Virus record (IMG/VR): IMGVR_UViG_3300027836_000007
Coordinates: 32,001 to 96,000 of that record
Strand: one strand, 5' to 3'
Length of the DNA stretch: 64,000 bases
DNA from: a virus
Shown: in pieces, positions 5,506-32,049 of the stretch
How the letters are laid out: each line of letters starts with the position of its first letter
How positions within the stretch are numbered: position 1 is the first letter of the stretch
Program-made: the position numbers and the translations under genes
The notes under the pieces: generated by a model
What the model saw: the letters and a program-made list of their open reading frames with translations, nothing else
Databases searched by the model: none
What the model was told of the DNA's origin: nothing

Positions 5506-5519
5506 AACTTTATTTACAT

Positions 5520-5546
5520 AAAAAAAGCACCCCGGAGGGTGCTTTT
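5520..5546 (-). terminator. Rho-independent terminator (possibly bidirectional)
   Basis: aaaagcaccc-cgga-gggtgctttt inverted repeat, followed by a U-tract on the minus strand, just after the 127-aa gene. Confidence 0.8.
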
Positions 5547-5563
5547 GAGTAATGCTGCCGAAT

Positions 5564-7115: not shown

Positions 7116-7137
7116 TGTGTAATCCCGTTAACTATAT

Positions 7138-9461: not shown

Positions 9462-9507
9462 ACTAATATTTATTCAATATATTAACTGCGTACTTAATGA
9501 GTAGCCA

Positions 9508-15443: not shown

Positions 15444-15465
15444 ATATTTATCTTACGATAAATAT
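15444..15465. promoter_or_regulatory. Back-to-back late promoters (GATAAATA on each strand) between divergent gp13 and gp14
   Basis: atatttatc-ttac-gataaatat, a perfect 9-bp inverted repeat. T4 late consensus is TATAAATA. Confidence 0.7.
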
Positions 15466-16882: not shown

Positions 16883-18342
16883 TGCAACATTTTTACGATG
16901 GACAAATAAGAAGATATCTCACACAAACTATTCGTGTGTTTAGTAATTTTGTTGTCAAATACGGTGATGGAACACTTGTGCGTGTACCTGTTATGTACGG
17001 CGATGCCGATAAACAAGCCGCTACTGTTGTACGTCAAAACTCAGAAAATAAAATTAACTCAGTACCTAAAATTGCTGTTTATATTTCTGGCCTGGCAATG
17101 GACACTACTAGACTAAGCGATTCAACTTATGTAGGTAAGGTACATGTGCGTGAACGTGATATTAACGGTGATGTTTACACTACTGGACAAGGTAAGAATT
17201 ATACTGTTGAACGTATGATGCCTACTCCGTTCAAACTTACAATTAAAGTAGACATATGGACGGCCAACACTGACCAAAAATTACAACTACTTGAACAGAT
17301 TTTAGTGTTGTTTAATCCAAGTTTAGAACTACAAACAACAGACAACTATATCGACTGGACTAGTTTAAGTGTTCTTAACTTAACCGGAGTTAATTGGTCA
17401 AGTAGACAAGTTCCAGTGGGAACAACTGACGCCATTGACATTGCTTCACTGACTCTCGAAACTCCAATTTGGATTAGTCCGCCAGTTAAAGTTAAACACC
17501 TTGGTGTTATTACAAAAATTATTACCAGCTTGTATCAAGGATCTAGCACAGATTCTACCTACATTGACGGATTAGGTCAACCGTTAACAAATCCAGATGT
17601 AACACTGTCTTCATTGTTGGCACAAGATGTTGTCACTATTACAGATTACAACATACAAGTGTACAACGGGCAAGCAATTTTATTAGCAAAAACTGAAAGC
17701 AGTGTTCCTAGAGAACCTACATTAGATATTCCTGTACGTCAAGGTACACCAATTCAATGGCAAGATGTATTCGATGTATATCCTGGCAAATACACTGCCG
17801 GGTCCAGCGCATTGTATCTAACACAGCCTAACGGGGTTGAAGTAGTAGGAACTGTTGCTATCAGCCCGTTAGATCCAACACTACTTACTGTGGCGTGGGA
17901 TAGTGACACTATTCCAAGTGATACACTAATTGATAGCCAAGGACGATTAGATAATCATCCAGACTATGGAGATGGTGTACAACATCGCAGTGGCAGTCCA
18001 GGAACATTTGATGCTATTGTTAATCCGCTTACATATAACCCAGCAACTCCAGATGCTGGTACTAGGTTGCTAATTGTAGAAGATATTGGCAGCGCAAATA
18101 ATAGCGTACCAGCTGCCGCTTGGGGTACGTTAGTTGCTAATGCTAACGATATTATTGAGTGGACTGGCACTGAATGGAATGTAGTGTTTAATTCTGTTCA
18201 AGAAACCAGCACTATGGTGTGGCAAACTAATATATACAAGAGCCAAGCAAACTTTAGAGTACAGTATGTCTGGAATGGCGTACAGTGGGCTAAGAGCTTT
18301 GAAGGCGAATATAGGGTAGGCGAATGGAGACTAGAGCTTTAA
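16882..18342 (+). CDS. gp15: Tail sheath stabiliser/terminator (gp15-like) with C-terminal extension
   Basis: HFYDGQIRRY....FSN, VPVMYG, PTPF.L, QLLEQIL.LFNP, WISPP. Confidence 0.85.
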   Translation: MQHFYDGQIRRYLTQTIRVFSNFVVKYGDGTLVRVPVMYGDADKQAATVVRQNSENKINSVPKIAVYISGLAMDTTRLSDSTYVGKVHVRERDINGDVYTTGQGKNYTVERMMPTPFKLTIKVDIWTANTDQKLQLLEQILVLFNPSLELQTTDNYIDWTSLSVLNLTGVNWSSRQVPVGTTDAIDIASLTLETPIWISPPVKVKHLGVITKIITSLYQGSSTDSTYIDGLGQPLTNPDVTLSSLLAQDVVTITDYNIQVYNGQAILLAKTESSVPREPTLDIPVRQGTPIQWQDVFDVYPGKYTAGSSALYLTQPNGVEVVGTVAISPLDPTLLTVAWDSDTIPSDTLIDSQGRLDNHPDYGDGVQHRSGSPGTFDAIVNPLTYNPATPDAGTRLLIVEDIGSANNSVPAAAWGTLVANANDIIEWTGTEWNVVFNSVQETSTMVWQTNIYKSQANFRVQYVWNGVQWAKSFEGEYRVGEWRLEL

Positions 18343-18773
18343 CAGATAGAATAGTATGTAGCGGAGCATTGTTCTACGCCAAGTCTACACGAAGATTTCT
18401 ACTGTTACAAAAAGCTCATGGTAAACATACTGGCACGTGGGGATTAGTTGGGGGTACAAACTTACAACACGAAAATCCATGGCAAGGTCTACAGCGTGAA
18501 GTCCAAGAAGAAATTGGATCTATGCCCGCAGTAATTAAAACAATTCCATTAGAAACATTTGTGTCTAACGATAAAATCTTTAATTTTCACACATACTTGT
18601 GTGTAATACAAGATGAATTTATTCCTGTATTAAGCGATGAACATTGTGCGTGGGCATGGTCAACTATTGATTATGCGCCAAAGCCCTTACATCAGGGACT
18701 GCGTAACAGCTTTTCAAACAAAACAATTCGTACTAAATTACAAACTGTATTTGATATAGTGGAGTTAATCTAA
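18324..18773 (+). CDS. Nudix hydrolase
   Basis: Nudix box GGTNLQHENPWQGLQREVQEEIG, plus EH..WAW and LH.G. Confidence 0.9.
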   Translation: METRALTDRIVCSGALFYAKSTRRFLLLQKAHGKHTGTWGLVGGTNLQHENPWQGLQREVQEEIGSMPAVIKTIPLETFVSNDKIFNFHTYLCVIQDEFIPVLSDEHCAWAWSTIDYAPKPLHQGLRNSFSNKTIRTKLQTVFDIVELI

Positions 18774-19345
18774 TGATTAAAAAAGCAGAATGTTGGATAT
18801 TTCCGACCATTATAAATGTTTATAATTTGTTAGATGTGGTCGATCTAACAGAAGTTAACGAAAAAATTGAAGAAACTGAAGTAGTTAACACTTATCATAA
18901 GTTGTTTAATGGCAAGGGTTTAAGAAGTAACTCTTCTCAGTTTTTGGATTCAAACGCAACTCTCAAGAATGCTATTCAGGAATGTATAGATCTGTATGCT
19001 GATCAACTAGGACTATATCCGTGTAAACTAACCTATAGTTGGTGTAACATATATAGAGACGGCAGTACAATAAAGCCTCATCGACATGAACTCAGTTTAG
19101 TAAGCGGAGTATTTTATAGTAAAACCGATGATGATTCAGGGCAACTGGTGTTTGATAACCCATGTCAGCCTTTTAAAGTCAATGAAATTTCTACGAGATT
19201 AACTGAATACAACAGACAAGCATTTAACTTTGAAATTTCACCTGGAGATTTAATATTATTTCCCAGTTGGATGATGCATTATACTGAAAATAATTTTTCT
19301 AATCAACGATACGTGGTTAGTTTTGACACAGGATTAAAACAATGA
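18773..19345 (+). CDS. Fe(II)/2OG oxygenase, TIGR02466-like (HxH type)
   Basis: IFPT start, SWCN, HRH, SGVFY, G.LVF.NP, GDLILFPSW..H, R.VVSF. Confidence 0.85.
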   Translation: MIKKAECWIFPTIINVYNLLDVVDLTEVNEKIEETEVVNTYHKLFNGKGLRSNSSQFLDSNATLKNAIQECIDLYADQLGLYPCKLTYSWCNIYRDGSTIKPHRHELSLVSGVFYSKTDDDSGQLVFDNPCQPFKVNEISTRLTEYNRQAFNFEISPGDLILFPSWMMHYTENNFSNQRYVVSFDTGLKQ

Positions 19346-19929
19346 GCTGGTTTATAAAAGATTTAAATTATACAAATGAGCCGTTTGCATACGCAACGGG
19401 TGTTCTTACAGATGATGAAATAAAATTAGTAGAAATATTGGCTAGCAAAAGTACTATGCAAGGAGATGGCGCTTTAGAAGGCGGTATTTCTGACGAGGCA
19501 ATACGTAAAAATAAAATTTCCTGGCTTGAAGTCTGTGAAGAGTCTAAAGACCTTTACATAAAAATATCAAATGTTGTTCAGCAGCTAAATGAAAGATTTT
19601 ATAGATACGATTTAACAGAAATGGAAAATTTACAGTATGCCGAATATCACTCAGATACACTAGGGCATTACACAACACACAGCGATGACGGTTACAAATA
19701 TAATCTTTTTAGAAAATTAAGTCTAAGTATTCAACTGTCGGATGAATCGGAGTATCAAGGCGGCGAATTAGTATTCCATCGATTTTCAACAAACCATCCA
19801 GAAGCCGCGCCTAAAACCAAAGGAACACTAATTCTGTTCCCTAGTTATGTACTACATGAAGTAACTCCTGTAACAGAAGGCGTAAGAAAAAGTTTAGTTT
19901 CGTGGGTAGTAGGGCCAAGATTTAAATGA
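19342..19929 (+). CDS. Fe(II)/2OG oxygenase, PKHD/prolyl-4-hydroxylase-like
   Basis: HSD, RKLSLSIQLSD..EYQGGEL, GTLILFPS...HEVTPVTEGVRKSLV.W..GP.F. Confidence 0.9.
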   Translation: MSWFIKDLNYTNEPFAYATGVLTDDEIKLVEILASKSTMQGDGALEGGISDEAIRKNKISWLEVCEESKDLYIKISNVVQQLNERFYRYDLTEMENLQYAEYHSDTLGHYTTHSDDGYKYNLFRKLSLSIQLSDESEYQGGELVFHRFSTNHPEAAPKTKGTLILFPSYVLHEVTPVTEGVRKSLVSWVVGPRFK

Positions 19930-20552
19930 GATATTATATTGATACACTGTTTCCAACTTCGGTATATTATTCAGACCTTAACTGTATGGATAAACTGTTT
20001 GACTATGAACTCGATGTCTTTAAAATTTTTAAAGATATTGAAAACGATCCGCATCCGTTTGGCGAAAGTAGTTTAAGCACTTCCTTTTGGCACACTGAAC
20101 ACGGACACTTATACAACGATAGCAGATTTTCTGAGTTATCTTCAACTATACGTAAACAGGCAGTGTTATTCTGTGAAGCTTTGGGATATACTTCTTTAAA
20201 AGAAAATCAGTTAGTGTTCACAAACATGTGGGCAAACTTAATTGGACCTTACGATTATCATGCCCAACATATTCATAGTACTACTGGTAATGCTGCCATT
20301 AGTGGCGTATTTTATGTAGATTCCCCGCCTGGCGCAAAAATAAGTTTTGGTTCGCCTTATAGAGATTCCTACGAACCATTTAAGCCGTGGATTGATAATC
20401 CAGCAAATTTTTCTAAAGTATCATATGATTGTGTTCCTGGAAGATTAGTTATGTTTAAGTCTAATGTTTATCACGGTTATGATAGTCATCGTCAAGAAAA
20501 AAACAAAATAAGTATTCCATTTAATTTATCAATTATACCATATGCCGGTTGA
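19926..20552 (+). CDS. Fe(II)/2OG oxygenase, TIGR02466-like (HxH type)
   Basis: LFPT, MWAN, HIH, ISGVFYV, GRLVMF.S..YH, KISIPFN. Confidence 0.85.
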   Translation: MRYYIDTLFPTSVYYSDLNCMDKLFDYELDVFKIFKDIENDPHPFGESSLSTSFWHTEHGHLYNDSRFSELSSTIRKQAVLFCEALGYTSLKENQLVFTNMWANLIGPYDYHAQHIHSTTGNAAISGVFYVDSPPGAKISFGSPYRDSYEPFKPWIDNPANFSKVSYDCVPGRLVMFKSNVYHGYDSHRQEKNKISIPFNLSIIPYAG

Positions 20553-21117
20553 ATATTTTTTTCCTACTCCTATATACTATTCTTTTGTAAAGAATTTAGA
20601 ATCGATTCACTGCGAAGTTGATTCTCATCTTGCGTCAGTTAAAGATATTGACTTGATAAATCCCTGGGGAGATACCGTACAAACGACATTTAAGTACAGA
20701 CAGCATAATCGTGTTTTAGATAATATGCCTACTCTGCTATCAGAAATTAAAGAAAATTGTCAAAATTTTTTAGAGACAATGAACCATCAAGTTGATAGCG
20801 TTGATATCGAACAATCGTGGTGTAATATTTCAAACAGAGATTCATTTCAACATTTTCATATACACGGAGCTATGGATTTGTCAGGTGTGTATTACCATCA
20901 GACTACAAGTAACGACGGGGACATTGTTTTTAGAAACCCGTCGCTAGTAAATAGATTTCATAAATTAACATATAATATTAACAATTCTGTCAACTATAAA
21001 CCAGAAGTTGGTAAAATTATATTATTTCCTAGTTTTTTAGAACATGCTGTATTTCATAATACTTCAGACGATAAACGAATTAGTATATCATTTAATATAA
21101 ACGTAAATTTAAAATGA
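20542..21117 (+). CDS. Fe(II)/2OG oxygenase, TIGR02466-like (HxH type)
   Basis: FFPTPIY, SWCN, HIH, LSGVYY, GDIVFRNP, LFPSFLEH.V, RISISFN. Confidence 0.88.
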   Translation: MPVEYFFPTPIYYSFVKNLESIHCEVDSHLASVKDIDLINPWGDTVQTTFKYRQHNRVLDNMPTLLSEIKENCQNFLETMNHQVDSVDIEQSWCNISNRDSFQHFHIHGAMDLSGVYYHQTTSNDGDIVFRNPSLVNRFHKLTYNINNSVNYKPEVGKIILFPSFLEHAVFHNTSDDKRISISFNINVNLK

Positions 21118-21734
21118 AAGAAAATTACAAAATTTTACGAAATTTCTTTAAAAAAGAAAAATGTTTAGAGATGACTACTAAACTTAGTAATTTATTACAA
21201 CGAGGAATTTATAGAAATCCAGATTCGTTATGTACTTTGAGTCCTGCGTTCTACGGAATATTTAATGACGAGATGATAGAAATTCAAAAAAATATCGAAA
21301 CACTAGTAGGAGAAGAATTATATCCATGCTATTCGTATGCTAGAATATATCAAAAACACGATATCCTCCCGCCACATACTGACAGACCAAGTTGTGAAAT
21401 TAGCCTTACCGTAACTTTAAATTATGAAAAACATACATGGCCAATTTGGTTGATAGATCAGGGACAAGTTACAAGTATTGAACTAGATATTGGGGATATG
21501 TTACTGTATAAAGGAACAGAAGTCATGCATTTTAGACACCCCATGCAAGGACAAGAGTTTCAATATCAAGTGTTTTTTCACTACGTTAAAAAACAAGGCA
21601 ATTACGCAAATTACAAATACGACTTGAATACAAGTTTACTATCAAACTTAGAAGCAGAAGAACAAAATTTCCCAGAATGGACTGATGATCAGCCGGACCG
21701 GATCATAAATAGAGACGATAAGGATACAAATTAA
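21114..21734 (+). CDS. Fe(II)/2OG oxygenase (HTDRPSCEIS type)
   Basis: LYP.YSYARIY...D.L.PHTDRPSCEISLT, GDMLLYKG....H.R, QVF.HYV. Confidence 0.85.
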   Translation: MKENYKILRNFFKKEKCLEMTTKLSNLLQRGIYRNPDSLCTLSPAFYGIFNDEMIEIQKNIETLVGEELYPCYSYARIYQKHDILPPHTDRPSCEISLTVTLNYEKHTWPIWLIDQGQVTSIELDIGDMLLYKGTEVMHFRHPMQGQEFQYQVFFHYVKKQGNYANYKYDLNTSLLSNLEAEEQNFPEWTDDQPDRIINRDDKDTN

Positions 21735-21735
21735 T

Positions 21736-22341
21736 ATGAATACCAAACCATCTGAAATATTTTATTTAGAAGATGTACTAAGACAAAATACGTTTGACAA
21801 CATTGTTGCCGAATTAAAAAAACCAATCTGGCAATACGGTAGAGTTACTAATCCCGATCTGTGGGACGAGGATACAACAGTATTTTGGCAAGCCGATTTA
21901 AGTCTAAATACCCTAGTAGGGGAACAAGCATTTTATGAAATTATTGATAAATTGAACCAAATTGACTCTACTACACAGAATTACCAGTTTAAACTTTATA
22001 GTGCTATTGCTGGCGGTAAAACATTCGGGTTAGATGGCGGAATTCATACTGATAAAGACGTAGAATTTAACAACATGGGCGACGGATTCATGACCTTTTG
22101 TTTTTTCCCAAACAGAGAATGGAATCCAGAATGGGGCGGCGAGTTTCAGTTCTTTGATCAGGAAGGAAATATAATTGCAACATACTATCCTAAGCCAAAC
22201 ACATGTTTAGTATTTGATAGTAACATTCCGCACAGAGGGCTTGCACCTAATAGAGATTGTAAAAAGCTCAGGATGTACCTTTCTTTCAAAACATTTGTGA
22301 GTAAAAAATGGTACTTGGACCAAAATAACAATGATTCTTAA
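21736..22341 (+). CDS. Fe(II)/2OG oxygenase, prolyl-hydroxylase-like
   Basis: IHTD, W.PEWGGE, PN..LVFDS.IPHRG.AP, R. Confidence 0.85.
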   Translation: MNTKPSEIFYLEDVLRQNTFDNIVAELKKPIWQYGRVTNPDLWDEDTTVFWQADLSLNTLVGEQAFYEIIDKLNQIDSTTQNYQFKLYSAIAGGKTFGLDGGIHTDKDVEFNNMGDGFMTFCFFPNREWNPEWGGEFQFFDQEGNIIATYYPKPNTCLVFDSNIPHRGLAPNRDCKKLRMYLSFKTFVSKKWYLDQNNNDS

Positions 22342-23050
22342 TTTATTTTCATTACCGATATATAAAGTTAATATTTTAGATCAAATTGATACTGGTAATC
22401 TTGAAGAAAAGTTACAGTCTGAATTTGCTCGATCTTCTTCTGACCCAAGTGGTCTAGAAAAAAATGGCGGAGTAAGCACTTACGATACTAATTGTAATTT
22501 ACATTTGGAAGAATATACAAAAACAATATCAAATATTGTGTTACAACATGCTAGATTATATTGGAAAGTATTAGATGTTGATCCTAGATTAGAACCTAGG
22601 ATCGATCAGTGCTGGTCAAATATACATTATAATAAAAGCATTACTATAGAACATTCTCATAGTTTATATCCTATTGTTGCTACCCTATATGTAAAATCTG
22701 AAAAACATTCAGGAGATTTAGTAATGATAAATCCAATGGAGTATGGGCTAACTCATATTCCGTACGGAGTTGCTATTGAAAATAAAACAGAAACTTCTAT
22801 TAAAGTTTCGACGGGAGATTTAGTATTGTTTCCAGGGTGGATTAGACATAAGACAACAGAAAATCTTTCAGATCAATCTAGAATTGTATTAAGTTTTAAT
22901 ATTCATTACCAAGGAACATATCTTGCGTCAAACAGTGACTATCTTGTGGATCATACGGTACATACTAGCGAAATTGATCAGTTACAGAATAAAATTCTAA
23001 AATTAGAATTTATCATAGATCATATGCAACGGAGTTTAAAAAATGATTAA
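22331..23050 (+). CDS. Fe(II)/2OG oxygenase, TIGR02466-like (HxH type), with C-terminal coiled-coil tail
   Basis: WSN, HSH, GDLV..NP, GDLVLFPGW..H, RIVLSFN, then a heptad-like tail. Confidence 0.85.
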   Translation: MILNLFSLPIYKVNILDQIDTGNLEEKLQSEFARSSSDPSGLEKNGGVSTYDTNCNLHLEEYTKTISNIVLQHARLYWKVLDVDPRLEPRIDQCWSNIHYNKSITIEHSHSLYPIVATLYVKSEKHSGDLVMINPMEYGLTHIPYGVAIENKTETSIKVSTGDLVLFPGWIRHKTTENLSDQSRIVLSFNIHYQGTYLASNSDYLVDHTVHTSEIDQLQNKILKLEFIIDHMQRSLKND

Positions 23051-23267
23051 AAAACCAAGAAGAATGCATTTAAATGAAAAAATACTACGTGTTCCTACGA
23101 AACTTTATGAAGAGCGACTAGCAATTTGTAAAACTTGTTACGCCTTCGATGCCGCTGGAGAAACAGGAGGTACTTGTAAAATTATAAATGTGCCTGTTAC
23201 AGCTAAATGCGCTTTAAAATCTGGTTCTTGTCCGATGGGATTCTGGTCGTCTAATTATGACAATTAA
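23043..23267 (+). CDS. Small Cys-rich protein (R..IC..C...C...KC..CP.G.W; DUF6171-like)
   Basis: 74 aa with 5 Cys and a GGAG RBS. Overlaps both neighbours. Confidence 0.7.
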   Translation: MIKKPRRMHLNEKILRVPTKLYEERLAICKTCYAFDAAGETGGTCKIINVPVTAKCALKSGSCPMGFWSSNYDN

Positions 23268-23958
23268 AATTGGTTACTGTCCTTGGTTTGAAAAAAATAA
23301 TCGAACTACAAATACTGCTCTTAACTATTATGGCTGGGCAGATTTGGCTTACTTTGATTTAGAACCGCTAGATACTTGGGAAAATTCAACAGCAAGGTAT
23401 CATCAGTGTCCTGCGTTTGTAAAATATGTAAAAAATACATTTGTATTAAGAAATACAGTAGATTTAGTATTGCACTGGGACAAATATAACCAAGTAGTAA
23501 GCACAAATTTACCCAAGGATGCGGCCGATGCGTTGGTAAGAACTCACTGGGGAGATTTTGATACTGACAAAGATCGCCCAATTGTTGCAATTAGTAATAG
23601 TTTTGTGTTTGTTGCAGATCAGCCAGTCTATGTCGAATTCTTACCTCCGTTTAATCATATTGATCATTCGTGGAGATTAATTCCCGGAATGTTTAATATC
23701 TTTTCGTGGCAACGGCCTGTAGTAACTACTATTGAAATGTTAACAGACGAAGTTATTCTAAAACGTGGTCAGCCCATGGCTTATATTAGATTTAGATCTG
23801 ACAACCCAAGTGATAAGTTTGTTTTGAAAAAAATAGAACGTACTGAACAACTAGAACATGCTGTAAACAGTTGTCTCACATTAAAACAATATATGCCAAA
23901 ATTAAGTTGGAAAATACATAACGCTATTAATAAGTTAAGGCCTAAAAAATGGCTGTGA
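23257..23958 (+). CDS. Hypothetical protein with CPAF...G.P motifs (DUF6065-like, possible dUTPase-like beta fold)
   Basis: HQCPAF..Y..N.F, IPG.FNI..W.RP, KRGQPMAYIRF. The family call is tentative. Confidence 0.55.
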   Translation: MTIKIGYCPWFEKNNRTTNTALNYYGWADLAYFDLEPLDTWENSTARYHQCPAFVKYVKNTFVLRNTVDLVLHWDKYNQVVSTNLPKDAADALVRTHWGDFDTDKDRPIVAISNSFVFVADQPVYVEFLPPFNHIDHSWRLIPGMFNIFSWQRPVVTTIEMLTDEVILKRGQPMAYIRFRSDNPSDKFVLKKIERTEQLEHAVNSCLTLKQYMPKLSWKIHNAINKLRPKKWL

Positions 23959-25418
23959 AGAAAGTAGCGATTCTAGGCGGGGGCACTTCTGGCTGGCTAA
24001 CAGCAATATTTTTTAAAAAAGTTTGGCCGGCACTAGAAATTACAGTAATTGAAGATCCAAAACATCCTCCAATTATAGCAGGAGAAAGTTGCACAGCACC
24101 CTTTGTCGACTTGTTAGATTTTTTAAATATTGACGTAAACGACTGGATTAAAAAAGTAGATGCTTTTCCTAAATTAGGGGGAAAGTTTGAAGGCTGGGGC
24201 CCCAATAATTCTGATTTTGTACAACCGTTATTTTCTTCTTATAAGAATCGGTGGGATTATAAAAATCCAGAGTTTGGCAAAGATAATGTTCTACTCAAAG
24301 GATTACTTGCTACAGGTTTACCCTTACATAAGATTACGGTGTCTGGTCATTTATTAGAAAATAATATAACACCTTTTACTTCTACCGGATTCGTAACTAG
24401 ACCAATGTATCATTTTGACAGCAGAAAAAATGCAGAATATTTTAAAAATATCGGCAAATCATTAAACATTAATCTAATTTTATCAAAATATCAGTCTTGT
24501 AAAATATCCGATAATGGAATTGAAAGTTTAACTTTAGAAGATCAAGAAGTTTGTGCAGATTTTTATATCGATTGTAGTGGATTTAATCAGTTGTTATTAA
24601 AAAAAGCATTAGGAGTTGAATTTAAAAATTTTTCTAAATATTTCCCAGCAACTAGTGTAATAGCTTGGTGGGACGAATCAGATTTAAAACCATATTCAAG
24701 AATGATTGCCATGGATTATGGCTGGCGATTTAATATAGACTTACGGTCTAGAAGTGGAAACGGTTATGTCTACGACGGGTCTTTAATTTCATCAGAACAA
24801 GCACAACAAGAAGTTGAAAGAAAACTTAATAAATCCGTTAATTTAGTTGCCAAAGCATCTTGGCAAGCTGAAATGGCTATTGAACCTTGGCAGAAAAATG
24901 TAATAGCAATAGGACTTAGTTCAGGATTTTTAGAACCGTTAGGATCAGGTGGTCATACTATGATTGCCTTGACTTTACAACTACTTTCAGAATTTTGGAA
25001 CCCAGAAAAAGAAACACACGGCCATGCAACTACGCTATTAAATTCTCGATATAAAGACATTGTTGATGATACTGTAGATTTTATTTCATTACACTATCGA
25101 AATAACAGAAGTGATACTGAATTTTGGAGGAAACATTTATCGGAAGAAACTGTTCCTCAATCGTTAAAACTAAAAATTGAACAACTTAAATCTGGAAACT
25201 TTTACGATATTGGGGTTGCATACTCTTTAGAAAATTATGCCGTAGTATTACAAGCATACGAGTTAATTGATAAATCATTGTTAGCTAATATTATTCGTTA
25301 CAAAAATGAAAAGTATTTAGATCAATGTATAGAAGAATATAACTTACTAAACAATCAAGCAAAACTAATAATCAAAGACTGTATTCCTACAACAGAATGG
25401 AAAAAATTATATGATTAA
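23949..25418 (+). CDS. Flavin-dependent tryptophan-halogenase-family protein 1 (divergent active-site motifs)
   Basis: GGGTSG FAD motif, GES, PKLG lysine, YHFD, DCSGF, GNGYVY, GF.EPL, HY..R.DT.FW. WxWxIP appears as WRFNID and EPLE as EPLG. Confidence 0.85.
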   Translation: MAVKKVAILGGGTSGWLTAIFFKKVWPALEITVIEDPKHPPIIAGESCTAPFVDLLDFLNIDVNDWIKKVDAFPKLGGKFEGWGPNNSDFVQPLFSSYKNRWDYKNPEFGKDNVLLKGLLATGLPLHKITVSGHLLENNITPFTSTGFVTRPMYHFDSRKNAEYFKNIGKSLNINLILSKYQSCKISDNGIESLTLEDQEVCADFYIDCSGFNQLLLKKALGVEFKNFSKYFPATSVIAWWDESDLKPYSRMIAMDYGWRFNIDLRSRSGNGYVYDGSLISSEQAQQEVERKLNKSVNLVAKASWQAEMAIEPWQKNVIAIGLSSGFLEPLGSGGHTMIALTLQLLSEFWNPEKETHGHATTLLNSRYKDIVDDTVDFISLHYRNNRSDTEFWRKHLSEETVPQSLKLKIEQLKSGNFYDIGVAYSLENYAVVLQAYELIDKSLLANIIRYKNEKYLDQCIEEYNLLNNQAKLIIKDCIPTTEWKKLYD

Positions 25419-26895
25419 CAATTTAATAATTCTCGGCGGCGGAACTAGTGGACTAGTTAACGCAATTATATTAAAGTCTATCTACCAAAAGCTCAACATT
25501 ACTATAGTAAAGTCCTCTGATGTTGGCATCATCGGCGTAGGTGAAGGTTCAACTGAACACTGGGCTCGTTTTATGCAAGTTGCAGGAATCTCCGTACACG
25601 AACTGTTAAAAGAAACAGATGCAACGTTTAAATCTGGTATAAAATTTATCAATTGGAATGGAGACGATGACTATTATTTCCATAGTGTTCACAGTCAATT
25701 TTTAACAGAAAGTTACAATGGTTCTAATAATATATATTTAAACATGATTGCAGGAGGAAAAACTCACCACGATATTATTCCTGATAACATTCATAAGTCA
25801 GTTCATTACGAACCTTTAGAAGGAACAGTCAATCAATTTCATTTCAATACCATGAAACTTAATGATTATCTCATTAAGCAATGTTTAGTTAGAGATATAA
25901 AAATTATTGACGATACAGTAGACGATGTTATTTTAGATGACACGGGCCATGTTTCAAAACTAATAGGCAAGTTAGGTGAATATTCGGCAGATTTTTTTAT
26001 TGATTGTAGCGGTTTTAAACGTGTTATATCTTCTAAATTAGGTGCAAAGTGGGTAGACTGTTCAGACTATCTACCAATGAATTCAGCATTTGCATTCCCT
26101 ACAGAAAAAATGGAAGATATTCCTTCACACACCCTTAGCACTGCAATGAGTTCAGGATGGATGTGGCGAATACCAACTAATGATAGATTTGGAAATGGTT
26201 ATGTATATTGTGATAAATTTATTACAGACGAACAAGCTATTGCAGAAGCACAATCTGTATTTCAAAAGCCTATCAACATTGCAAAGACATTTAAATTCAC
26301 TGCTGGATATGTAGATAAATTTTGGATTAAAAATTGTGTGGCTGTTGGGCTGGCTGGGAGTTTTGTTGAACCGTTAGAAGCCAGTAGTATAGGAACTTCT
26401 ATTCAACAGGCATTTGGCATCGCCAACTCTTTAATAAATTACGAGGACGGTGATCAATCATTGATTGACAAATACAATTATGATTTTGAAAGCGTGGCTA
26501 AAAATATTATTGATTTTGTTCAACTACATTATATAACTAAAAGAGAAGATTCTGCTTTTTGGAAAAATTGTAAAAATTTAAAATTAACTGAATTTAATCA
26601 ACAAACATTAGAGCATTTTAAAAAATACGGTCCTAATACAACTTTCTTTAGTAAGCCATATATGCTTTTTAGGGAAGTAAATTGGTTATTAGTCATGCAC
26701 GGCTTAAAAATGCTCGACATAGAAAGTATAAAGAATATGATGTCACAACAAAATGACGATATATTGTTTTCAACAAACGAACTTCAAAAAGATTTTAGTA
26801 AATTTGTTGAAAAACAAACTATGATTACTCATAGAGAATGTTTAGAAATTTTAAAATCTAGAAACTCCGTTCATGTTATCAGTATGGAACAGTGA
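25411..26895 (+). CDS. Flavin-dependent tryptophan-halogenase-family protein 2
   Basis: GGGTSG, GVGEGST, ATFKSGI, DCSGF, WMWRIP, FVEPLEASS, HY...RED.AFW. Confidence 0.92.
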   Translation: MINNLIILGGGTSGLVNAIILKSIYQKLNITIVKSSDVGIIGVGEGSTEHWARFMQVAGISVHELLKETDATFKSGIKFINWNGDDDYYFHSVHSQFLTESYNGSNNIYLNMIAGGKTHHDIIPDNIHKSVHYEPLEGTVNQFHFNTMKLNDYLIKQCLVRDIKIIDDTVDDVILDDTGHVSKLIGKLGEYSADFFIDCSGFKRVISSKLGAKWVDCSDYLPMNSAFAFPTEKMEDIPSHTLSTAMSSGWMWRIPTNDRFGNGYVYCDKFITDEQAIAEAQSVFQKPINIAKTFKFTAGYVDKFWIKNCVAVGLAGSFVEPLEASSIGTSIQQAFGIANSLINYEDGDQSLIDKYNYDFESVAKNIIDFVQLHYITKREDSAFWKNCKNLKLTEFNQQTLEHFKKYGPNTTFFSKPYMLFREVNWLLVMHGLKMLDIESIKNMMSQQNDDILFSTNELQKDFSKFVEKQTMITHRECLEILKSRNSVHVISMEQ

Positions 26896-27527
26896 TGGCT
26901 ATAGAGCAAAAGTCTTTTCCAAATTACGGGTATTCAATGTCAGTTTTGCCCGACGACGTGTTATGTATAATTAAAGAAGAAATTAATAATTTACAAACTA
27001 ACAGTAAAATTTATAAAAATCTAGCAGGGCATTTAGAATCGCAACATTATCTAACAGAATCTCGAAACACATTATCTCCAATTATTTTAGAAATGGCGGC
27101 TGAGTATCTGCTTTCTTGGAATTTTAAAAACGAAGTACTTAGAAATAATCCAAAGGCAGATGTTATCTCTTTTAAATTAGATGATATTTGGGTAAATTTA
27201 CAGAAAAAGACAGAGTATAATCCGTTACACGACCATTCTGGAGTTTTTAGTTTTGTTGCTTGGATCAACATACCCTACAATTTAGAAACAGAAATGAAAC
27301 TGCCGAATGTCGAATCTTCAAATAACCCGTTAGCAACAACTTTTAACTTTGTCTATACTAATGTGTTTGGAGAGATTATTGCCTTGCCATTTTTTGCTGA
27401 GAAAAAACACGAAGGAACTATCATTTTTTTCCCGGCAAAGTTAAAACATTTAGTTTATCCATTTTTAACTTCAGAAGAGCATAGAATAACTATTTCAGGA
27501 AACGTGTCCCTTAACACCGCTGTGTGA
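26895..27527 (+). CDS. Fe(II)/2OG oxygenase (HxH type)
   Basis: LAGHL, WVN.QK..EYNPLHDHSGVFSFV.W..IPY, FFPA.L.H.VYPF, RITISGN. Confidence 0.85.
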   Translation: MAIEQKSFPNYGYSMSVLPDDVLCIIKEEINNLQTNSKIYKNLAGHLESQHYLTESRNTLSPIILEMAAEYLLSWNFKNEVLRNNPKADVISFKLDDIWVNLQKKTEYNPLHDHSGVFSFVAWINIPYNLETEMKLPNVESSNNPLATTFNFVYTNVFGEIIALPFFAEKKHEGTIIFFPAKLKHLVYPFLTSEEHRITISGNVSLNTAV

Positions 27528-27555
27528 TAATTACATATATCACATTAGGAGACAT

Positions 27556-29145
27556 ATGAGTAACGTGAATAAAATAGTGATAGTCGGTGGTGGTAGTGCT
27601 GGTTGGATGAGCGCAGCCACTCTGATTAAACATTTTCCAAATAAAGAAATTTATGTTATAGAAAGCCCCAATGTTCCCACTGTCGGTGTTGGTGAAAGCA
27701 CTATTGGGCAAATAAACGAATGGCTGTACGATCTTGATATCAAGGATGATGACTGGATGAAACAATGTGATGCCAGTTATAAGATGAGCATCAAGTTTAC
27801 TAATTTCTATAAAGAAGATGCGGGTGCCTTTCACTATCCATTTGGTGTTCCAGTAGTTGAAGCCAAATTTTTTCCGTACGGAGTCAATGACTGGTATGTG
27901 AGGAAATCTGTTCATCCTGAGATACCGGTTTCTAATTTTGCGGACACATATTTCCCCGCAATGACATTAATTAATAAAAATAAAATTACCGACAATAAAA
28001 ACAATGAAATACCAGGCTGGAACTTTGATCGAGATGTGGCCTATCATTTTGATGCGGCAAAGTTCGGTGCTTGGCTGAGAGATTCGTATGCTGTTCCTAA
28101 AGGGGTAACACATATACCTGCTGAAGTAACATCTATACAAACAAACAGCGAAGGTGTTGAACATCTTGTATTAGATAATGGCGATAAAGTTACTGCTGAT
28201 TTATTTTTAGACTGCACAGGATTTAAATCTATTATTTTAGATAAGACGATGAAGGTTCCTTTTGAAAGTTATAGTGATTTACTACCCAATAACAGTGCAT
28301 GGGCTACACGTATCCCATTTCAAGATAAAGAAAAAGAATTAGAACCGTTTACTAACTGTACTGCTATAGGTAATGGTTGGGTTTGGAATATTCCGCTATG
28401 GAGTCGAATTGGAACTGGATATGTTTACAGTGACGAATATATTTCAGACCAAGATGCATTAGAAGAATTTAAAGAATATTTACAAAAAGAAAGAGAAGTG
28501 CCAATTCCAAAATCTGTCATTGACTCTTTAGAATTTAAAAATATTAAAATGCGTGTAGGAATACACAAAGAAATTTATCACAAAAATGTCTGTGGTATTG
28601 GGTTAGCTGCAGGGTTCATTGAACCATTAGAATCTAATGGTTTGTATACTGTTCACGAATTTTTATTAAAATTAGTTGCAATACTTAATAGAAATTCTGT
28701 AAGTCAATTTGATAAAACTGCCTTTAATGAAGGATGTAGAGGAGATTTTAGAGCTTTTGCTGAATTCGTAGCCTTACACTATGCTATGAGTCACAGGGAC
28801 CAAACTCCTTATTGGCAGGCTGTGCAACATCGTGTATTTCCAAAAACTATGCCGTTGGGCGTATATGCTACATCTGGAATTGACAGTATAATACATAGAA
28901 AGTTTGTAAGCCATTTATATGATATGGACATGGGCGGCACGTTGATGATAGCAACTGGCATGAACTTGTTTCCGTTTGACAGTAGTCTACTAAAAAGAAC
29001 GCTGTTTAGAAATTCTAATGCAGAATATCTGACCTACTTACAAGATGTTTGTTGGCATAAATGGGATGCTGACTTAGATCAAAGAAATGAATTTGCTGAT
29101 TCTGCTCCAACACTATATCAATATTTAAAAAGCAAATATGATTAA
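27556..29145 (+). CDS. Flavin-dependent tryptophan-halogenase-family protein 3 (canonical motifs)
   Basis: GGGSAGW, GVGEST, ASYKMSI, AYHFDA, DCTGF, WVWNIP, RIGTGYVYS, FIEPLESNG. AGGAG RBS. Confidence 0.95.
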   Translation: MSNVNKIVIVGGGSAGWMSAATLIKHFPNKEIYVIESPNVPTVGVGESTIGQINEWLYDLDIKDDDWMKQCDASYKMSIKFTNFYKEDAGAFHYPFGVPVVEAKFFPYGVNDWYVRKSVHPEIPVSNFADTYFPAMTLINKNKITDNKNNEIPGWNFDRDVAYHFDAAKFGAWLRDSYAVPKGVTHIPAEVTSIQTNSEGVEHLVLDNGDKVTADLFLDCTGFKSIILDKTMKVPFESYSDLLPNNSAWATRIPFQDKEKELEPFTNCTAIGNGWVWNIPLWSRIGTGYVYSDEYISDQDALEEFKEYLQKEREVPIPKSVIDSLEFKNIKMRVGIHKEIYHKNVCGIGLAAGFIEPLESNGLYTVHEFLLKLVAILNRNSVSQFDKTAFNEGCRGDFRAFAEFVALHYAMSHRDQTPYWQAVQHRVFPKTMPLGVYATSGIDSIIHRKFVSHLYDMDMGGTLMIATGMNLFPFDSSLLKRTLFRNSNAEYLTYLQDVCWHKWDADLDQRNEFADSAPTLYQYLKSKYD

Positions 29146-29899
29146 CTTTATTAAAGAGCTGTTTTCTAAAAAGAAAGAAATTATTACTTTTAGTTGCAAG
29201 GACTGGGCTATACGAAAATATTCACCGGTTGAATTAGGGGAGCAAAAATTACCTCAGGAATATTTAGATTTACCTGTGGGGAAAATTTGCCCGTTTGAAA
29301 GAAAAAATCAAAGTTATCAACTTTCAGCAAGACAATGTCCGTCGATTAATTCTTTTTTAAAGTATGGATATGTTATCTCTGCTTGGTGCGATATAGAAAT
29401 TAGTTTTGAAGACGATCATGTGTACATCAAATATAGTAATTTAGATTATAATCACGATGTACACACAGAAAATCAATATCAAAAAATTATAGGTGATCAA
29501 TTTGATGTTAGACTAATTATAAAAATAAACAACCCGTGGCATATAAAAACCTTAGATGGATATAGTTGTTTCTGGATGCCAATTTACTATACAAATAAGA
29601 ATTATCAAGCTATTCCTGCTATAGTGGATACTGATTTGATGTTAAATGACTTACCAATTAATCTAGCATTTTTTGAAAAAAAATATACTTTGATAAAAAT
29701 GGGAGAACCCTTAGTTAAAGTTATTCCTTTTCGTCGAGAGCCAATTGACGCTGTAAGCAAAAAATACGACTCTGCTGATGAAAATAGATTTTTAAATATC
29801 CTGGGATTAAATGGACTTAGTAGATATAATTGGCGAGGGTTTATTACTGCAAAAAATAAGTTTAGTTTGGATAAAAAAGACTTAGACATTGAATCATGA
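29138..29899 (+). CDS. Hypothetical protein with CP...G.P motifs (DUF6065-like)
   Basis: QCPSI..F...GY...W.D, KI.NPW.I.T..GYS, IVDTD, GEPL...IPFRRE. Confidence 0.55.
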   Translation: MINFIKELFSKKKEIITFSCKDWAIRKYSPVELGEQKLPQEYLDLPVGKICPFERKNQSYQLSARQCPSINSFLKYGYVISAWCDIEISFEDDHVYIKYSNLDYNHDVHTENQYQKIIGDQFDVRLIIKINNPWHIKTLDGYSCFWMPIYYTNKNYQAIPAIVDTDLMLNDLPINLAFFEKKYTLIKMGEPLVKVIPFRREPIDAVSKKYDSADENRFLNILGLNGLSRYNWRGFITAKNKFSLDKKDLDIES

Positions 29900-30483
29900 T
29901 CAACTTGGAACCTATCAATCTTTGGCCTAGTTTAATACATAAATCTGTTTACCCTGGAGATTTGACAAATATTTCTAGTAAATTTTTGACACTCTTTAAT
30001 GAAAATTCAAATCATAATTTAGAAAAAAACGGTGGCAAGTCTACATACAGTACTGTAAACAACCTAATTACCGACCCAGTGTGCGGCAAACTAAAAGAAT
30101 GGTTAATTCAACAAAGTAAACTAGTTTGGGATTTATCTAATTTTGTTGATCGTCCAAGACGTGTGCATAGAAGTTGGGTAAACTTACATCCTCCAGGGGC
30201 ATGGACTGATGAACACGACCATGCAATGTGTCATCAAAACATTGTTGTTTATTTAAAACAACCTGAATTAGGTGGTAACATAATGTTTAAAGATCCTCTA
30301 CAATACACATTTTCTGGATTTCCAAAAAATAATAAAAATGACTGGACAACATTGGAAGTTAAACAGAACGATGTAGTTTTTTTTCCTGGATTTTTACATC
30401 ATAAAACAGAAATTAACTCTAGTCAAGAAGATAGAATGGTTATGACTCTAACTATATCCGTGGATATATTTGCTGATGAATAA
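29896..30483 (+). CDS. Fe(II)/2OG oxygenase, TIGR02466-like (HxH type)
   Basis: SWVN, HDH, GGNI.FKDP, FFPG.L.H.T..N, R.V. Confidence 0.85.
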   Translation: MINLEPINLWPSLIHKSVYPGDLTNISSKFLTLFNENSNHNLEKNGGKSTYSTVNNLITDPVCGKLKEWLIQQSKLVWDLSNFVDRPRRVHRSWVNLHPPGAWTDEHDHAMCHQNIVVYLKQPELGGNIMFKDPLQYTFSGFPKNNKNDWTTLEVKQNDVVFFPGFLHHKTEINSSQEDRMVMTLTISVDIFADE

Positions 30484-31066
30484 TTATAGAAACGTAACAT
30501 TATTAGGAAAAATTCCACTACTCACTAGTCAGTGGTCAGAATTCGATAACTATAAAAAAGACATCGTTGATCTTTGTTTAAAACTTGAAGTTCCTAATAC
30601 GATAGAATCTAATATAGCAGTTCATGCGAAATCAGATTTGTGGGAATCGTCTTTCGATTTTTTAGAAAAACAAACAGATATTAATAATTTAAAATTATGG
30701 CTGATACAGGAATCTACTGAATTAATCAATAATTTTAACAATAGTAATTACAGAACAGTTATAACAGAAAGTTGGGCACATGTTACTAGGGCAAGTGGAT
30801 ATCATAAACCTCATTATCACTGTGGCTCAACTTGGTCCGGCATTTTTTATGTTGCTGGTGAAACTAATAAAGGAGGAAGTAATAATTGGTACTTGCCTTA
30901 TTACGTAGAAAGACAGCCTGGGTTAGAATTTGCAGATAGTATGTACACTGTTAATTGCCAGCCCGGAACATTAGTGTTATTTCCCAGTATGCTACTTCAT
31001 GATGCTGATGTGTATCAAGGAACCCAACCGAGGATAGTTATTTCTTTTAATTCCATATGCTTATAA
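30470..31066 (+). CDS. Fe(II)/2OG oxygenase, TIGR02466-like (HxH type)
   Basis: ESW.HVT...GYH..HYH..STWSGIFY, PG.LVLFPS.L.H....Y.G...RIVISFN. Confidence 0.88.
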   Translation: MLMNNYRNVTLLGKIPLLTSQWSEFDNYKKDIVDLCLKLEVPNTIESNIAVHAKSDLWESSFDFLEKQTDINNLKLWLIQESTELINNFNNSNYRTVITESWAHVTRASGYHKPHYHCGSTWSGIFYVAGETNKGGSNNWYLPYYVERQPGLEFADSMYTVNCQPGTLVLFPSMLLHDADVYQGTQPRIVISFNSICL

Positions 31067-31653
31067 TAGACGACGTTATTGTGTTAGACGATATTGTTCC
31101 TAAACAATATCAAGATTTGATAGAAACTCAAATGTTAGGTGACAATATACATTGGCACTACATGAGAGACATAACCTTTGATGTTGAAAAACTCAATGAG
31201 TTAAAGGTTACTGTTGCTAAACCTGCATTTGCTCACAAATTTTACGACAGGACTGCTGGGATTATTAGCCCTGGATATGGATTAGTATTGCCCATTGTGT
31301 ACAATGCTTGCGAAAAAATTAAGTTTCATGTAAACGAAGTTATTGCCGCAAGGAGTTTTTTAACTATTCCCCTTCCAAATCTAGAAAGCGCCCTAGATCA
31401 TCCGCATGTTGATAGAGAAGTTTCTCACATAGTAGTTCTATATTATGTTACAGATTCTGACGGAGATACTGTGATATATGACAAAACTTTTAGAGATGTC
31501 TCTCCTGATCATCTTAGAAAAGAAGATTTACAAATTTTTAAAAGTGTTACGCCTAAAAAGGGAAGAGCCATCGTATTTGATGGCTCTCGATATCACACTA
31601 GCACTAGGCCAACTACTGGACACAGATGTGTAGTTAACTTTGGTGTATGGTAA
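31057..31653 (+). CDS. Fe(II)/2OG oxygenase (cyanophage-type HxD family)
   Basis: PHVD, LYYV.DSDGDT, PKKGR...FDG..YHTS..P, R.VVNF. Confidence 0.88.
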   Translation: MLIIDDVIVLDDIVPKQYQDLIETQMLGDNIHWHYMRDITFDVEKLNELKVTVAKPAFAHKFYDRTAGIISPGYGLVLPIVYNACEKIKFHVNEVIAARSFLTIPLPNLESALDHPHVDREVSHIVVLYYVTDSDGDTVIYDKTFRDVSPDHLRKEDLQIFKSVTPKKGRAIVFDGSRYHTSTRPTTGHRCVVNFGVW

Positions 31654-32049
31654 TTATGTTGGTGGAAGGTAATTTCCTGGATCGCCTTCTGCACCTGGCT
31701 TAGGCACCGCACTTTTAACTGTTTCAATCGACTTAAACCATTGGCCAGTAGGCGATATAGTTCCTGTATCGCGAATCTCTTTAAACAACATATCTAATTG
31801 ATCTCCCATTGGAGGATACGCTCTCATTCGTTGCATATAAAATGGCTCAACTGGATTTCCAAATTCGTCTCTAGAATGGGAGTGTGGGTCAGAAAATTCG
31901 CCAGTTTCCTCACTATATCCCCAGCCAGTTTCACAGTTATCAGGGCAATCAACCCAGAAGAAATCTGTAGTTGTTTCAAAATCAGTTTCATCTGGTCCTA
32001 GTATCTGAGTTACTTGCCAAAATCTTTTATCAATTAATGCTCTTTTCAT
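31654..32049 (-). CDS. Probable tail fibre-associated/assembly protein
   Basis: Likely start MKRALID at 32049 (AGGA upstream; the track start overlaps the fibre gene). WVDCPD..GW.Y motif and R..AYP.MGDQLDMLF...W...I..VK...PKP motif, directly after the fibre genes. Confidence 0.6.
   Translation of the reverse strand: MKRALIDKRFWQVTQILGPDETDFETTTDFFWVDCPDNCETGWGYSEETGEFSDPHSHSRDEFGNPVEPFYMQRMRAYPPMGDQLDMLFKEIRDTGTISPTGQWFKSIETVKSAVPKPGAEGDPGNYLPPT

Follow-up and report, generated by a model that had tools for sequence, protein, structure and literature searches.

A Syn9-type oxygenase and halogenase island in the morphogenesis region of an uncultured jumbo phage, with fibre-region proteins as possible substrates

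The closest described counterpart of the locus reported here is the gp38–gp54 neighbourhood of cyanophage Syn9 (and Syn10), where genes for dioxygenases, halogenases and a dUTPase-fold protein were described together by Iyer, Abhiman, de Souza and Aravind in 2010 (PMC2938197). The JmjC/MINA-type gene gp49 was the entry point of that paper, and related neighbourhoods without such a gene were listed in it as well. The same families were found scattered through the cyanomyoviruses by Sullivan et al. in 2010, and drawdown or modulation of 2-oxoglutarate (2OG) or DNA repair was proposed as their role (PMC3037559). The flavin halogenase VirX1 tolerates bulky substrates in an active site that is large and open, and no known biosynthetic cluster includes it (PMC8407142). 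Moreover, a hypervariable (hyperplastic) region following g15 in the structural module of cyanomyoviruses was described by Millard et al. in 2009, as summarised in PMC2984593. In this study, a cassette of 17 genes at positions 18773–31653 of one window, a stretch of 64,000 nucleotides (nt) comprising bases 32001–96000 of the 106.8-kb IMG/VR viral contig IMGVR_UViG_3300027836_000007, was analysed, and the Syn9 locus was compared gene by gene with the window proteins. The cassette, first noticed from the letters of the window, is not a new kind of system: it was matched family by family to Syn9 gp38–gp54, published in 2010 (PMC2938197). The system type has been known since then, and the window is a large case in a different phage lineage. 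What is new here is the jumbo-phage setting, the battery itself, which is the largest of the Syn9 type among the loci seen here, the mosaic breakpoint, and the statistics linking GP40 to halogenases. The best reading of the cassette is post-translational tailoring of the neighbouring fibre-region proteins, to which a probability of roughly 40% was assigned.

The cassette consists of 17 consecutive open reading frames (ORFs) on the plus strand, which overlap by 4–14 nt except for one 1-nt and one 28-nt gap and run on without a gap from the gp14-like (15470), gp15 and NUDIX genes. The ORF coordinates thereby bear out the predicted unbroken run of overlapping or abutting genes. The tight overlaps suggest translational coupling. 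The content comprises 11 Fe(II)/2OG-oxygenase-type genes, three flavin halogenases, two dUTPase-fold DUF6065 proteins and one small Cys-rich protein; the Pfam and PHROG profiles thus agree with the 11 oxygenases and three halogenases first proposed, two of the oxygenases being on weaker evidence. The features of the plus-strand unit, numbered within the window, are listed below (aa, amino acids).

15470–16882, plus strand: gp14-like virion structural protein (phrog_11591), first gene of the plus-strand unit
16882–18342, plus strand: gp15 tail sheath stabiliser, 486 aa, jumbo-phage type (PF16724)
18324–18773, plus strand: NUDIX hydrolase (family match), last conserved backbone gene, with the mosaic breakpoint here
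18773–19345, plus strand: g01, PF13759 oxygenase-type protein with HRH...H and R-x-S (Pfam)
19342–19929, plus strand: g02, prolyl-4-hydroxylase (P4H)-type 2OG oxygenase with HSD...H (PF13640)
19926–20552, plus strand: g03, oxygenase-type protein (PF13759)
20542–21117, plus strand: g04, oxygenase-type protein (PF13759), closest solved structures 3BVC and 2RG4
21114–21734, plus strand: g05, 2OG-oxygenase-like protein with HTD...H, Syn9 gp54 family, carrying the database label 'ferrochelatase'
21736–22341, plus strand: g06, 2OG oxygenase with HTD...H (PF13640)
22331–23050, plus strand: g07, oxygenase-type protein (PF13759)
23043–23267, plus strand: g08, 74-aa Cys-rich protein (phrog_13558; DUF6171 at 26.2 bits against a cut-off of 27)
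23257–23958, plus strand: g09, DUF6065-like protein, paralogue of g14
23949–25418, plus strand: g10, flavin-dependent halogenase family, motifs degenerate (PF04820)
25411–26895, plus strand: g11, flavin-dependent halogenase, motifs intact (PF04820)
26892–27527, plus strand: g12, oxygenase-type protein (PF13759)
27556–29145, plus strand: g13, VirX1-type flavin halogenase with its own Shine-Dalgarno sequence after the 28-nt gap (PF04820, 6QGM)
29138–29899, plus strand: g14, DUF6065-like protein, dUTPase fold, invariant Cys67, Syn9 gp43 family
29896–30483, plus strand: g15, oxygenase-type protein, Syn9 gp45 family (PF13759)
30470–31066, plus strand: g16, oxygenase-type protein (PF13759)
31057–31653, plus strand: g17, P4H-like 2OG oxygenase with HVD...H, Syn9 gp51/gp53 family

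The block was also confirmed to be AT-rich, with a GC content of 0.30–0.355 compared with 0.38–0.42 in the flanks and 0.45–0.47 in the fibre genes. Recent tandem duplication was considered as the source of the 11 oxygenases and was ruled out. Paralogue identities are only 22–30%, and many oxygenase pairs lie beyond detection by BLASTP; judged by these low identities, the paralogues are old and were assembled rather than newly duplicated. As had been stated, no NRPS/PKS, transporter or flavin reductase gene was found among the scanned window genes, two ORFs of 3761 and 3094 aa standing outside the family scan, and no PF01613 (Flavin_Reduct) match was obtained in the whole 106.8-kb contig. The halogenases would depend on a flavin reductase of the host.

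Nine of the oxygenase-type genes exceeded the Pfam cut-off, and two (g05 and g17) were assigned on weaker evidence. PF13759, the Pfam family 'putative 2OG-Fe(II) oxygenase', was matched by g01, g03, g04, g07, g12, g15 and g16 at 40–70 bits, and PF13640 by g02 and g06. The g17 protein scored under the PF13640 cut-off (23.7 bits) and matched phrog_274/phrog_61 as well as Syn9 gp51 and gp53, while g05 gave no Pfam match and was recognised from phrog_2954, Syn9 gp54 and its HTD...H motif. At least five oxygenase groups are therefore represented, namely PF13759, g02, g06, g05/gp54 and g17/gp51-53. The canonical H-x-D...H triad was found in g02 (HSD), g05 (HTD), g06 (HTD) and g17 (HVD), together with the distal His and a basic residue. 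P4H-type oxygenases are, as a family, protein hydroxylases. JmjC and Cupin_4/8 domains gave no Pfam match, Syn9 gp49 gave no BLASTP match among the window proteins, and no TET/JBP or AlkB-type family was detected, the oxygenases being PF13759 and P4H-like. A further PF13759 gene (67.5 bits; G000:C1:26209-26502, minus strand) lies on the same contig about 5.5 kb upstream of the window start, apart from the cassette.

All three halogenase-family proteins, g10, g11 and g13, matched PF04820 (Trp_halogenase) at 258–349 bits. The g13 protein aligned with VirX1 (6QGM) over its full length (residues 3–526, 396 bits), and g10 and g11 belong to other halogenase branches, being 26–29% identical to g13. 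The GxGxxG motif, the catalytic Lys and E-P-L were invariant across 18 aligned halogenases of the lineage. In g11 and g13, all four variant-A motifs are present (GxGxxG, the Lys corresponding to K79 of PrnA/VirX1, WxWxIP and EPLE). The g10 protein keeps GxGxxG and the Lys, but WRFNID and EPLG replace WxWxIP and EPLE, which was unique among the 18; its role as an active halogenase is doubtful, and its function may have been altered or lost. The open active site of VirX1 and its lack of a biosynthetic cluster fit a macromolecular substrate without showing one.

The two DUF6065-like proteins accompany the enzymes. The model of g14 (pLDDT 79.5) gave Z scores of 10–11.7 to 11 dUTPases, compared with about 3.5 for unrelated chains, and g14 matched Syn9 gp43 at E 1e-12. 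Its Cys67 is invariant in 19 sequences. The DUF6065 family keeps this Cys and not the dUTPase motifs (identity 6–18%), although three relatives gave a weak Pfam dUTPase match. The family of g08 occupies the place of gp44 in the Syn9 cluster. Homologues of g14 (DUF6065/dUTPase-fold) also occur in haloarchaeal tailed viruses without a halogenase match, comprising Serpecor1 and about 40 other records; in Halorubrum virus Serpecor1 (L277, NC_062740), the DUF6065 gene at 4797–5627 on the plus strand is convergent with tail genes and adjoins a ribonucleotide reductase gene.

The last base of the cassette is 31653, and with 31654 the fibre-region genes begin on the other strand, the two sets thus meeting tail to tail. 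The statement that the cassette ends at the fibre module was therefore right as to the boundary at 31653/31654, but the fibre genes are minus-strand and convergent rather than co-directional. The genes past this boundary are the following.

31654–32049, minus strand: GP40-like gene, 131 aa, Syn9 gp40 family (phrog_1787), abutting the cassette tail to tail
32066–33013, minus strand: fibB, Gly_rich_2 (PF21722, 36.3 bits, above cut-off), Syn9 gp38/gp39 family
33020–34525, minus strand: fibC, Gly_rich_2 fibre-region protein (31.4 bits, above cut-off)
34532–35494, minus strand: fibD, Gly-rich fibre-region protein (PF21722 at 23.9 bits, just below cut-off; phrog_863)
35494–36072, minus strand: fibE, 192-aa gene kept in most relatives of the lineage

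The proteins encoded by fibB, fibC and fibD matched phrog_863 at E 1e-34 to 1e-43 and were matched by Syn9 gp38/gp39, while Syn9 gp40 matched the GP40-like gene at E 1.5e-10. The true start of the latter is Met38 of a 168-aa ORF. The GP40 family counts about 1,370 protein clusters in public data, all of them unannotated, and its invariant residues are W32, R74, Y78, Q84, D86, W104 and K112. The structural model (pLDDT 85.8) has an N-terminal beta domain, and the best matches were weak, namely the cyanophage fibre chain 7ypx_a (Z 5.4) and the Mu fibre chaperone (Z 3.4); Foldseek returned no significant match to the fold. Among the longer proteins, none was found in which GP40 is fused to a halogenase or to a fibre domain, which is weak evidence. 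Collagen-like fibres were considered as targets of prolyl hydroxylation and were ruled out, as the Gly-rich proteins contain 17–22% Gly and 2.5–3.5% Pro with no G-X-Y repeat.

The association between GP40 and halogenases was determined in IMG/VR loci that were picked solely for a GP40-like gene and annotated with profiles built for this analysis. The loci were the best 80 matches of each search and do not form a random sample of phages. A full-length GP40 with no less than 2.5 kb of sequence after it was present in 56 loci; a halogenase followed GP40 in 52 of these, within 2.5 kb in 45 of the 52, and Gly-rich genes, usually three, stood upstream of GP40 in 50 of 51 loci. Matches to the C-terminal part of GP40 alone were accompanied by a halogenase in 2 of 14 cases. 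At least three kinds of backbone show the order of Gly-rich genes, GP40 and halogenase: the jumbo type (convergent with NUDIX/gp15), the Syn9 type and a T4-like type. In the T4-like context, the genes lie on one strand in the order fibre, three Gly-rich genes, GP40, X411, halogenase, gp13-like, gp14, gp15 and terminase, with no other enzyme nearby (L201 type). At other loci, the oxygenase found most often between GP40 and the halogenase belongs to the g17 family. In many T4-like contigs, GP40 is separated from the halogenase by a conserved protein of 411–420 aa (X411; phrog_1458, no Pfam match), for example at L201:10457-11692 and L210:10432-11694 (both on the plus strand); this protein has no counterpart in the window cassette.

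The variation of the island was then compared among relatives sharing the backbone of dNMP kinase, adaptor, gp14-like, gp15 and NUDIX genes, which is common to 80 contigs (the best 80 matches) with gp15 identities of 60–97%. The relative nearest in the backbone, L001 (gp15 97% identical), loses similarity exactly at 18773. In L081, the nucleotide identity to the window is 67–78% in the gp14-like and gp15 genes; at about 18.5 kb it rises to 93–99% and stays there over the whole cassette, the GP40-like gene and fibB/fibC, as far as the L081 contig reaches. Since similarity breaks at 18773 in one relative and identity jumps at nearly the same point in the other, the island is, by these alignments, exchanged independently of the neck genes, and in the L081 pair the cassette and the first fibre genes have evidently moved as one block. 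On 40-kb extensions of ten long relatives, the variable zone stretches from NUDIX to a conserved 118-aa gene and the two giant ORFs, measures 6–21 kb and contains a shifting mix of enzymes, Gly-rich proteins, fibE-like genes and one carbamoyltransferase. The latter, a NodU/CmcH-type protein (PF16861 and PF02543), is encoded in the island of relative G004 (L164:9532-11322, plus strand), and a 596-aa ORF stands at the corresponding site of relative G006.

Regarding its wider setting, the contig is 29% complete according to CheckV, which implies a jumbo phage of about 370 kb. The carrier is, by its gp15, an uncultured jumbo phage and not a T4-like cyanophage, because this protein is nearest to those of the jumbo phages Phosso, PA5oct and Atu_ph07. 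NUDIX adjoins gp15 in the PA5oct group too. The 486-aa gp15 is about twice as long as its T4-like counterparts (249–272 aa in the T4-like contigs fetched); PF16724 covers residues 3–226 only, and the C-terminal half is common to Phosso, PA5oct and Atu_ph07. No nucleotide match to the region was found among GenBank phages. Outside the cassette, the window is a T4-like morphogenesis region by Pfam/PHROG annotation. A minus-strand set precedes the gp14-like gene (SSB, large terminase, two tail-tube genes, sheath, dNMP kinase and gp13-like adaptor), the plus strand carries gp14-like, gp15, NUDIX and then the cassette, and a second minus-strand set follows it (the 131-aa gene, three Gly_rich_2 genes, fibE, a 118-aa gene, two giants and a baseplate wedge protein). 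The giant ORFs of 3761 aa (36474–47759, minus strand) and 3094 aa (47815–57099, minus strand) are 33–75% identical in relatives of the lineage and are presumably fibre- or baseplate-associated.

The timing of cassette expression was approached through ATAAATA boxes. The T4-type late promoter, TATAAATA, is an A/T-rich octamer located at about -10 before late structural genes and recognised by a gp55-type factor. The corresponding elements of the window are listed here.

3901–3907, 7135–7141, 9467–9473, 15445–15451, 32067–32073 and 47780–47786, minus strand: ATAAATA heptamers
15458–15464 and 21705–21711, plus strand: ATAAATA heptamers, the second being an internal box 24 nt before the g06 start
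15445–15464, in the 24-nt divergent gap between adaptor and gp14-like: palindrome TATTTATC-ttac-GATAAATA, a perfect 8-nt inverted repeat with two opposed ATAAATA boxes
32067–32074, minus strand: the sole exact TATAAATA in the window, 17 nt before the GP40-like start

For each of the eight ATAAATA heptamers of the window, a start codon on its own strand comes -1 to 24 nt downstream, a placement for which about 1% of positions qualify. The genes so preceded are gp14-like and the adaptor (the palindromic pair), a tail-tube gene, a virion protein, a 786-aa gene (at an alternative ATG), the 3761-aa giant, g06 and the GP40-like gene. Four boxes stand at -1 to 5 nt from the start, which is unusual for a late promoter and would give leaderless or near-leaderless mRNAs, and four at 17–24 nt. 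The original prediction had the unit begin at a late box, and the GATAAATA at 15457, before gp14-like, was indeed found; by frequency alone, however, GATAAATA is at chance level (4 found, 4.1 expected), and thus the position of ATAAATA, rather than its count, carries the signal. Terminator signals inside the plus-strand unit did not rise above chance, and scans for sigma-70 promoters and terminators remained at chance level. The palindrome looks like a compact bidirectional, late-promoter-like element. The positions of the boxes support an element of the T4-late type and transcription of the cassette together with gp14-like, gp15 and NUDIX; the cassette would most likely be transcribed late, from the box before gp14-like and the internal box before g06.

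Taken as a tailoring system for fibre-region proteins, the locus would work as follows. A Syn9-type tailoring island would occupy the hypervariable zone where two late structural operons converge, and its enzymes would modify the three Gly-rich proteins and/or the GP40-like protein, with its invariant Trp32, Tyr78 and Trp104, before or during fibre assembly. A VirX1-type halogenase and a P4H-like oxygenase of the g17 family would form the conserved core, the remaining oxygenases and halogenases would extend the decoration repertoire in a lineage-specific and exchangeable way, and reduced flavin would come from the host. More tentatively than the general reading, the GP40-like and/or the three Gly-rich proteins may be the natural substrates of this halogenase and oxygenase pair, in which case many aquatic virions would carry halogenated and hydroxylated fibre tips. 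Gene content, fold assignments, synteny statistics, mosaic inheritance and the places of the promoter-like boxes are direct results. The identity of the substrates is what we infer above all, more so than the late timing and the enzymatic activity. The idea of a dedicated fibre-modifying system gains from the GP40/Gly-rich–halogenase link and from the block inheritance in L081, but it is not supported for the full 17-gene battery, since the enzyme genes vary freely among relatives in content, order and strand. Similarly, the predicted synteny between cassette and Gly-rich genes holds for the GP40-centred loci (52 of 56), but strict co-variation of cassette and Gly-rich fibre genes was not found within the lineage when the DNA of the relatives was annotated directly.

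Several results weigh against tailoring of the fibre-region proteins. Among relatives with at least 5 kb past NUDIX, 22 of 36 carry 1–13 cassette-type genes and 14 carry none, the genes lying all on the plus strand in 6, all on the minus strand in 5 and on both in 11, so that the content, order and strand of the oxygenase battery vary freely. Relative G004 has 12 enzyme genes with no GP40 and a lone, sub-threshold Gly_rich_2 match (16.9 bits), and four others (G005, G006, G011 and G013) have Gly-rich proteins with the same G-x-V-x-I-x-Y C-terminus and no enzymes. The converse of the GP40 link fails as well: 63 of 80 halogenase-centred loci contain 2OG genes, only 5 contain GP40 and 8 contain Gly-rich genes, and in the 24 such loci of at least 15 kb, Gly-rich genes or GP40 were present in 7. 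These loci were retrieved with an alignment query, as g13 used as a single query returned near-identical contigs only. In the window itself, the halogenases do not adjoin GP40, and the cassette is on the strand opposite to the fibre genes. On the halogenase tree, GP40 linkage requires 8 changes compared with 34 when shuffled; this clustering in clades is as compatible with vertical co-inheritance as with function, and a conserved gene order can be inherited linkage. The chemistry is a further difficulty. All seven PF13759 members show H-x-H...H followed by R/K-x-[SI] and not the canonical H-x-D/E, and the same H-x-H...H pattern is seen in 3BVC and 2RG4, uncharacterised structures and the sole solved members of the family. 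To our knowledge, no PF13759 member has been characterised, and the chemistry of the seven proteins is taken from the family name only. We also know of no Trp-halogenase-family enzyme acting on folded proteins, the substrates so far being small molecules or short peptides. Finally, secondary-metabolite synthesis was proposed for the Syn9 cluster itself, and bacterial neighbourhoods combining TonB receptor, SapC, Trp-halogenase and JmjC or 2OG dioxygenase genes have no fibres (PMC2938197).

The enzyme-less relatives show a feature of their own: their Gly-rich proteins carry Cys-rich stretches (CWCGG, CGGGCCWGG) before the G-x-V-x-I-x-Y end, for example at L170:17701-18459 (minus strand), L178:14965-15897 (minus strand) and L182:3111-4190 (plus strand), and either fall below the Gly_rich_2 cut-off or have no Pfam match.

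A second reading, put forward by Iyer et al. (2010), is the tailoring of a small molecule, which we regard as possible but somewhat unlikely. The enzymes would act successively on a host-derived amino acid or short peptide and so yield a halogenated and hydroxylated metabolite in the course of infection, and the place beside the fibre genes would only reflect where variable DNA is tolerated. This is suggested by analogy with cephamycin-type pathways, in which several unrelated dioxygenases take part (PMC2938197), and by the many free aromatic compounds that VirX1 halogenates in vitro (PMC8407142). An identity of 22–30% between paralogues suits enzymes of separate steps, fibre genes are absent from the surroundings of most halogenase/2OG clusters, the G004 island includes a carbamoyltransferase, which is a classic tailoring enzyme, and the dUTPase-fold protein, in which one Cys is invariant, could serve to bind or carry a small ligand. 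However, neither in the window nor in the islands of relatives was a gene found for a scaffold-forming enzyme, a carrier protein, an exporter or anything like a precursor peptide, and the order of Gly-rich genes, GP40 and halogenase in 52 of 56 loci, within single-strand structural operons without another enzyme (L201 type), is hard to explain in this way. Counting against it too, we know of no halogenated metabolite that has been tied to a phage halogenase. A modification of nucleotides or phage DNA by hydroxylation or halogenation is very improbable. The dUTPase fold of g09 and g14, the three relatives weakly matching Pfam dUTPase, the NUDIX and dNMP kinase genes nearby and the ribonucleotide reductase beside the halovirus DUF6065 homologue point in this direction, but NUDIX and dNMP kinase are conserved backbone genes present with or without the island, the oxygenases are of the PF13759 and P4H-like families rather than TET/JBP or AlkB types, and what DUF6065 retains is the Cys rather than the dUTPase motifs.

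The island might also be a loose set of accessory genes that share no substrate and act on host physiology, for example through 2OG drawdown, repair or hydroxylation of host proteins. Its position where two operons converge suits this, as do the hypervariable zone known to follow g15 in cyanomyoviruses (as reported in PMC2984593), the free variation in content, order and strand, the 14 of 36 relatives without such genes, a GC content below that of the backbone, and the 2OG modulation and DNA repair proposed by Sullivan et al. in 2010 (PMC3037559). Nevertheless, the same families (PF13759, P4H-like, gp54-like, gp51/53-like, halogenase, DUF6065 and the small Cys-rich protein) recur jointly in Syn9 and in many uncultured phages, which argues for co-function, and the tight overlaps suggest translational coupling; a loose island is therefore considered unlikely. 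Less probable again is a modification of the envelope or of the phage receptor, for instance to exclude superinfecting phages or to keep progeny from adsorbing to debris again. Late expression would fit such a role, and bacterial relatives of the enzymes adjoin TonB-dependent outer-membrane receptors and SapC (PMC2938197). The island, however, contains no signal peptides, transporters or envelope-biosynthesis genes, its enzymes need the cytoplasmic cofactors FADH2, 2OG and Fe, and nothing in this analysis points to the envelope.

The substrates of the viral flavin halogenases and 2OG oxygenases of aquatic phages have been a question since the first cyanophage genomes, and VirX1 is in use as a biocatalyst. 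As the GP40-like gene and the three Gly-rich genes almost always occur with a halogenase, the search for substrates is narrowed to a few proteins, and these candidates are present in phages that are already cultured (Syn9 and Syn10). If fibre-region proteins are indeed tailored, this would be the first case of a structural protein halogenated by an enzyme and would add a further level at which host range or stability can vary, and the exchangeable oxygenase battery would be a means to diversify the surface chemistry of the fibres. In any case, the Syn9-type battery extends to an uncultured jumbo-phage lineage, as an exchangeable island in the morphogenesis region.

Compared with the known systems, the bacterial neighbourhoods resemble the cassette, by their description, in combining one to three Trp-halogenase-type genes with gp52/gp54-like dioxygenases, whereas no TonB receptor, SapC or JmjC gene was found here. 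The zone after g15 in cyanomyoviruses is likewise a variable insertion zone in an otherwise syntenic structural module, starting from gp15. As summarised in PMC2984593, it holds there mainly host-like metabolic genes (4–14), in contrast to the tailoring enzymes and fibre-region genes of the present zone, which is bounded by NUDIX and a convergent fibre operon and belongs to a jumbo-phage lineage. With VirX1 of cyanophage Syn10 (6QGM), the predicted halogenase g13 shares GxGxxG, the catalytic Lys, WxWxIP and EPLES. The differences from Syn9 are that Syn9 is a cyanomyovirus of the Kyanoviridae and the window phage an uncultured jumbo phage with a PA5oct/Phosso-like gp15; that the enzymes are convergent with the fibre genes here and co-directional with them in Syn9; that 11 + 3 + 2 genes (oxygenases, halogenases and dUTPase-fold proteins) stand here and 10 + 2 + 1 there; that one halogenase here (g10) has degenerate motifs; and that neither a JmjC/MINA-type gene (gp49, which is accessory and not defining) nor a TPR-fused member was found in the window. 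Gene by gene, the oxygenases correspond as gp45 to g15/g07, gp48 to g04/g03, gp51/53 to g17 and gp54 to g05, the halogenases gp41/42 correspond to g13 at 40% identity, gp43 with its dUTPase fold and conserved Cys corresponds to g14, and both loci contain a small Cys-rich protein. In both, the Gly-rich genes (gp38/39, corresponding to fibB/C/D) and gp40 (corresponding to the GP40-like gene) directly adjoin the enzymes. The array of distantly homologous dioxygenases, the halogenases with Rossmann motif and Lys, and the dUTPase-fold Cys protein that characterise the Syn9 neighbourhood were thus all found in the cassette.

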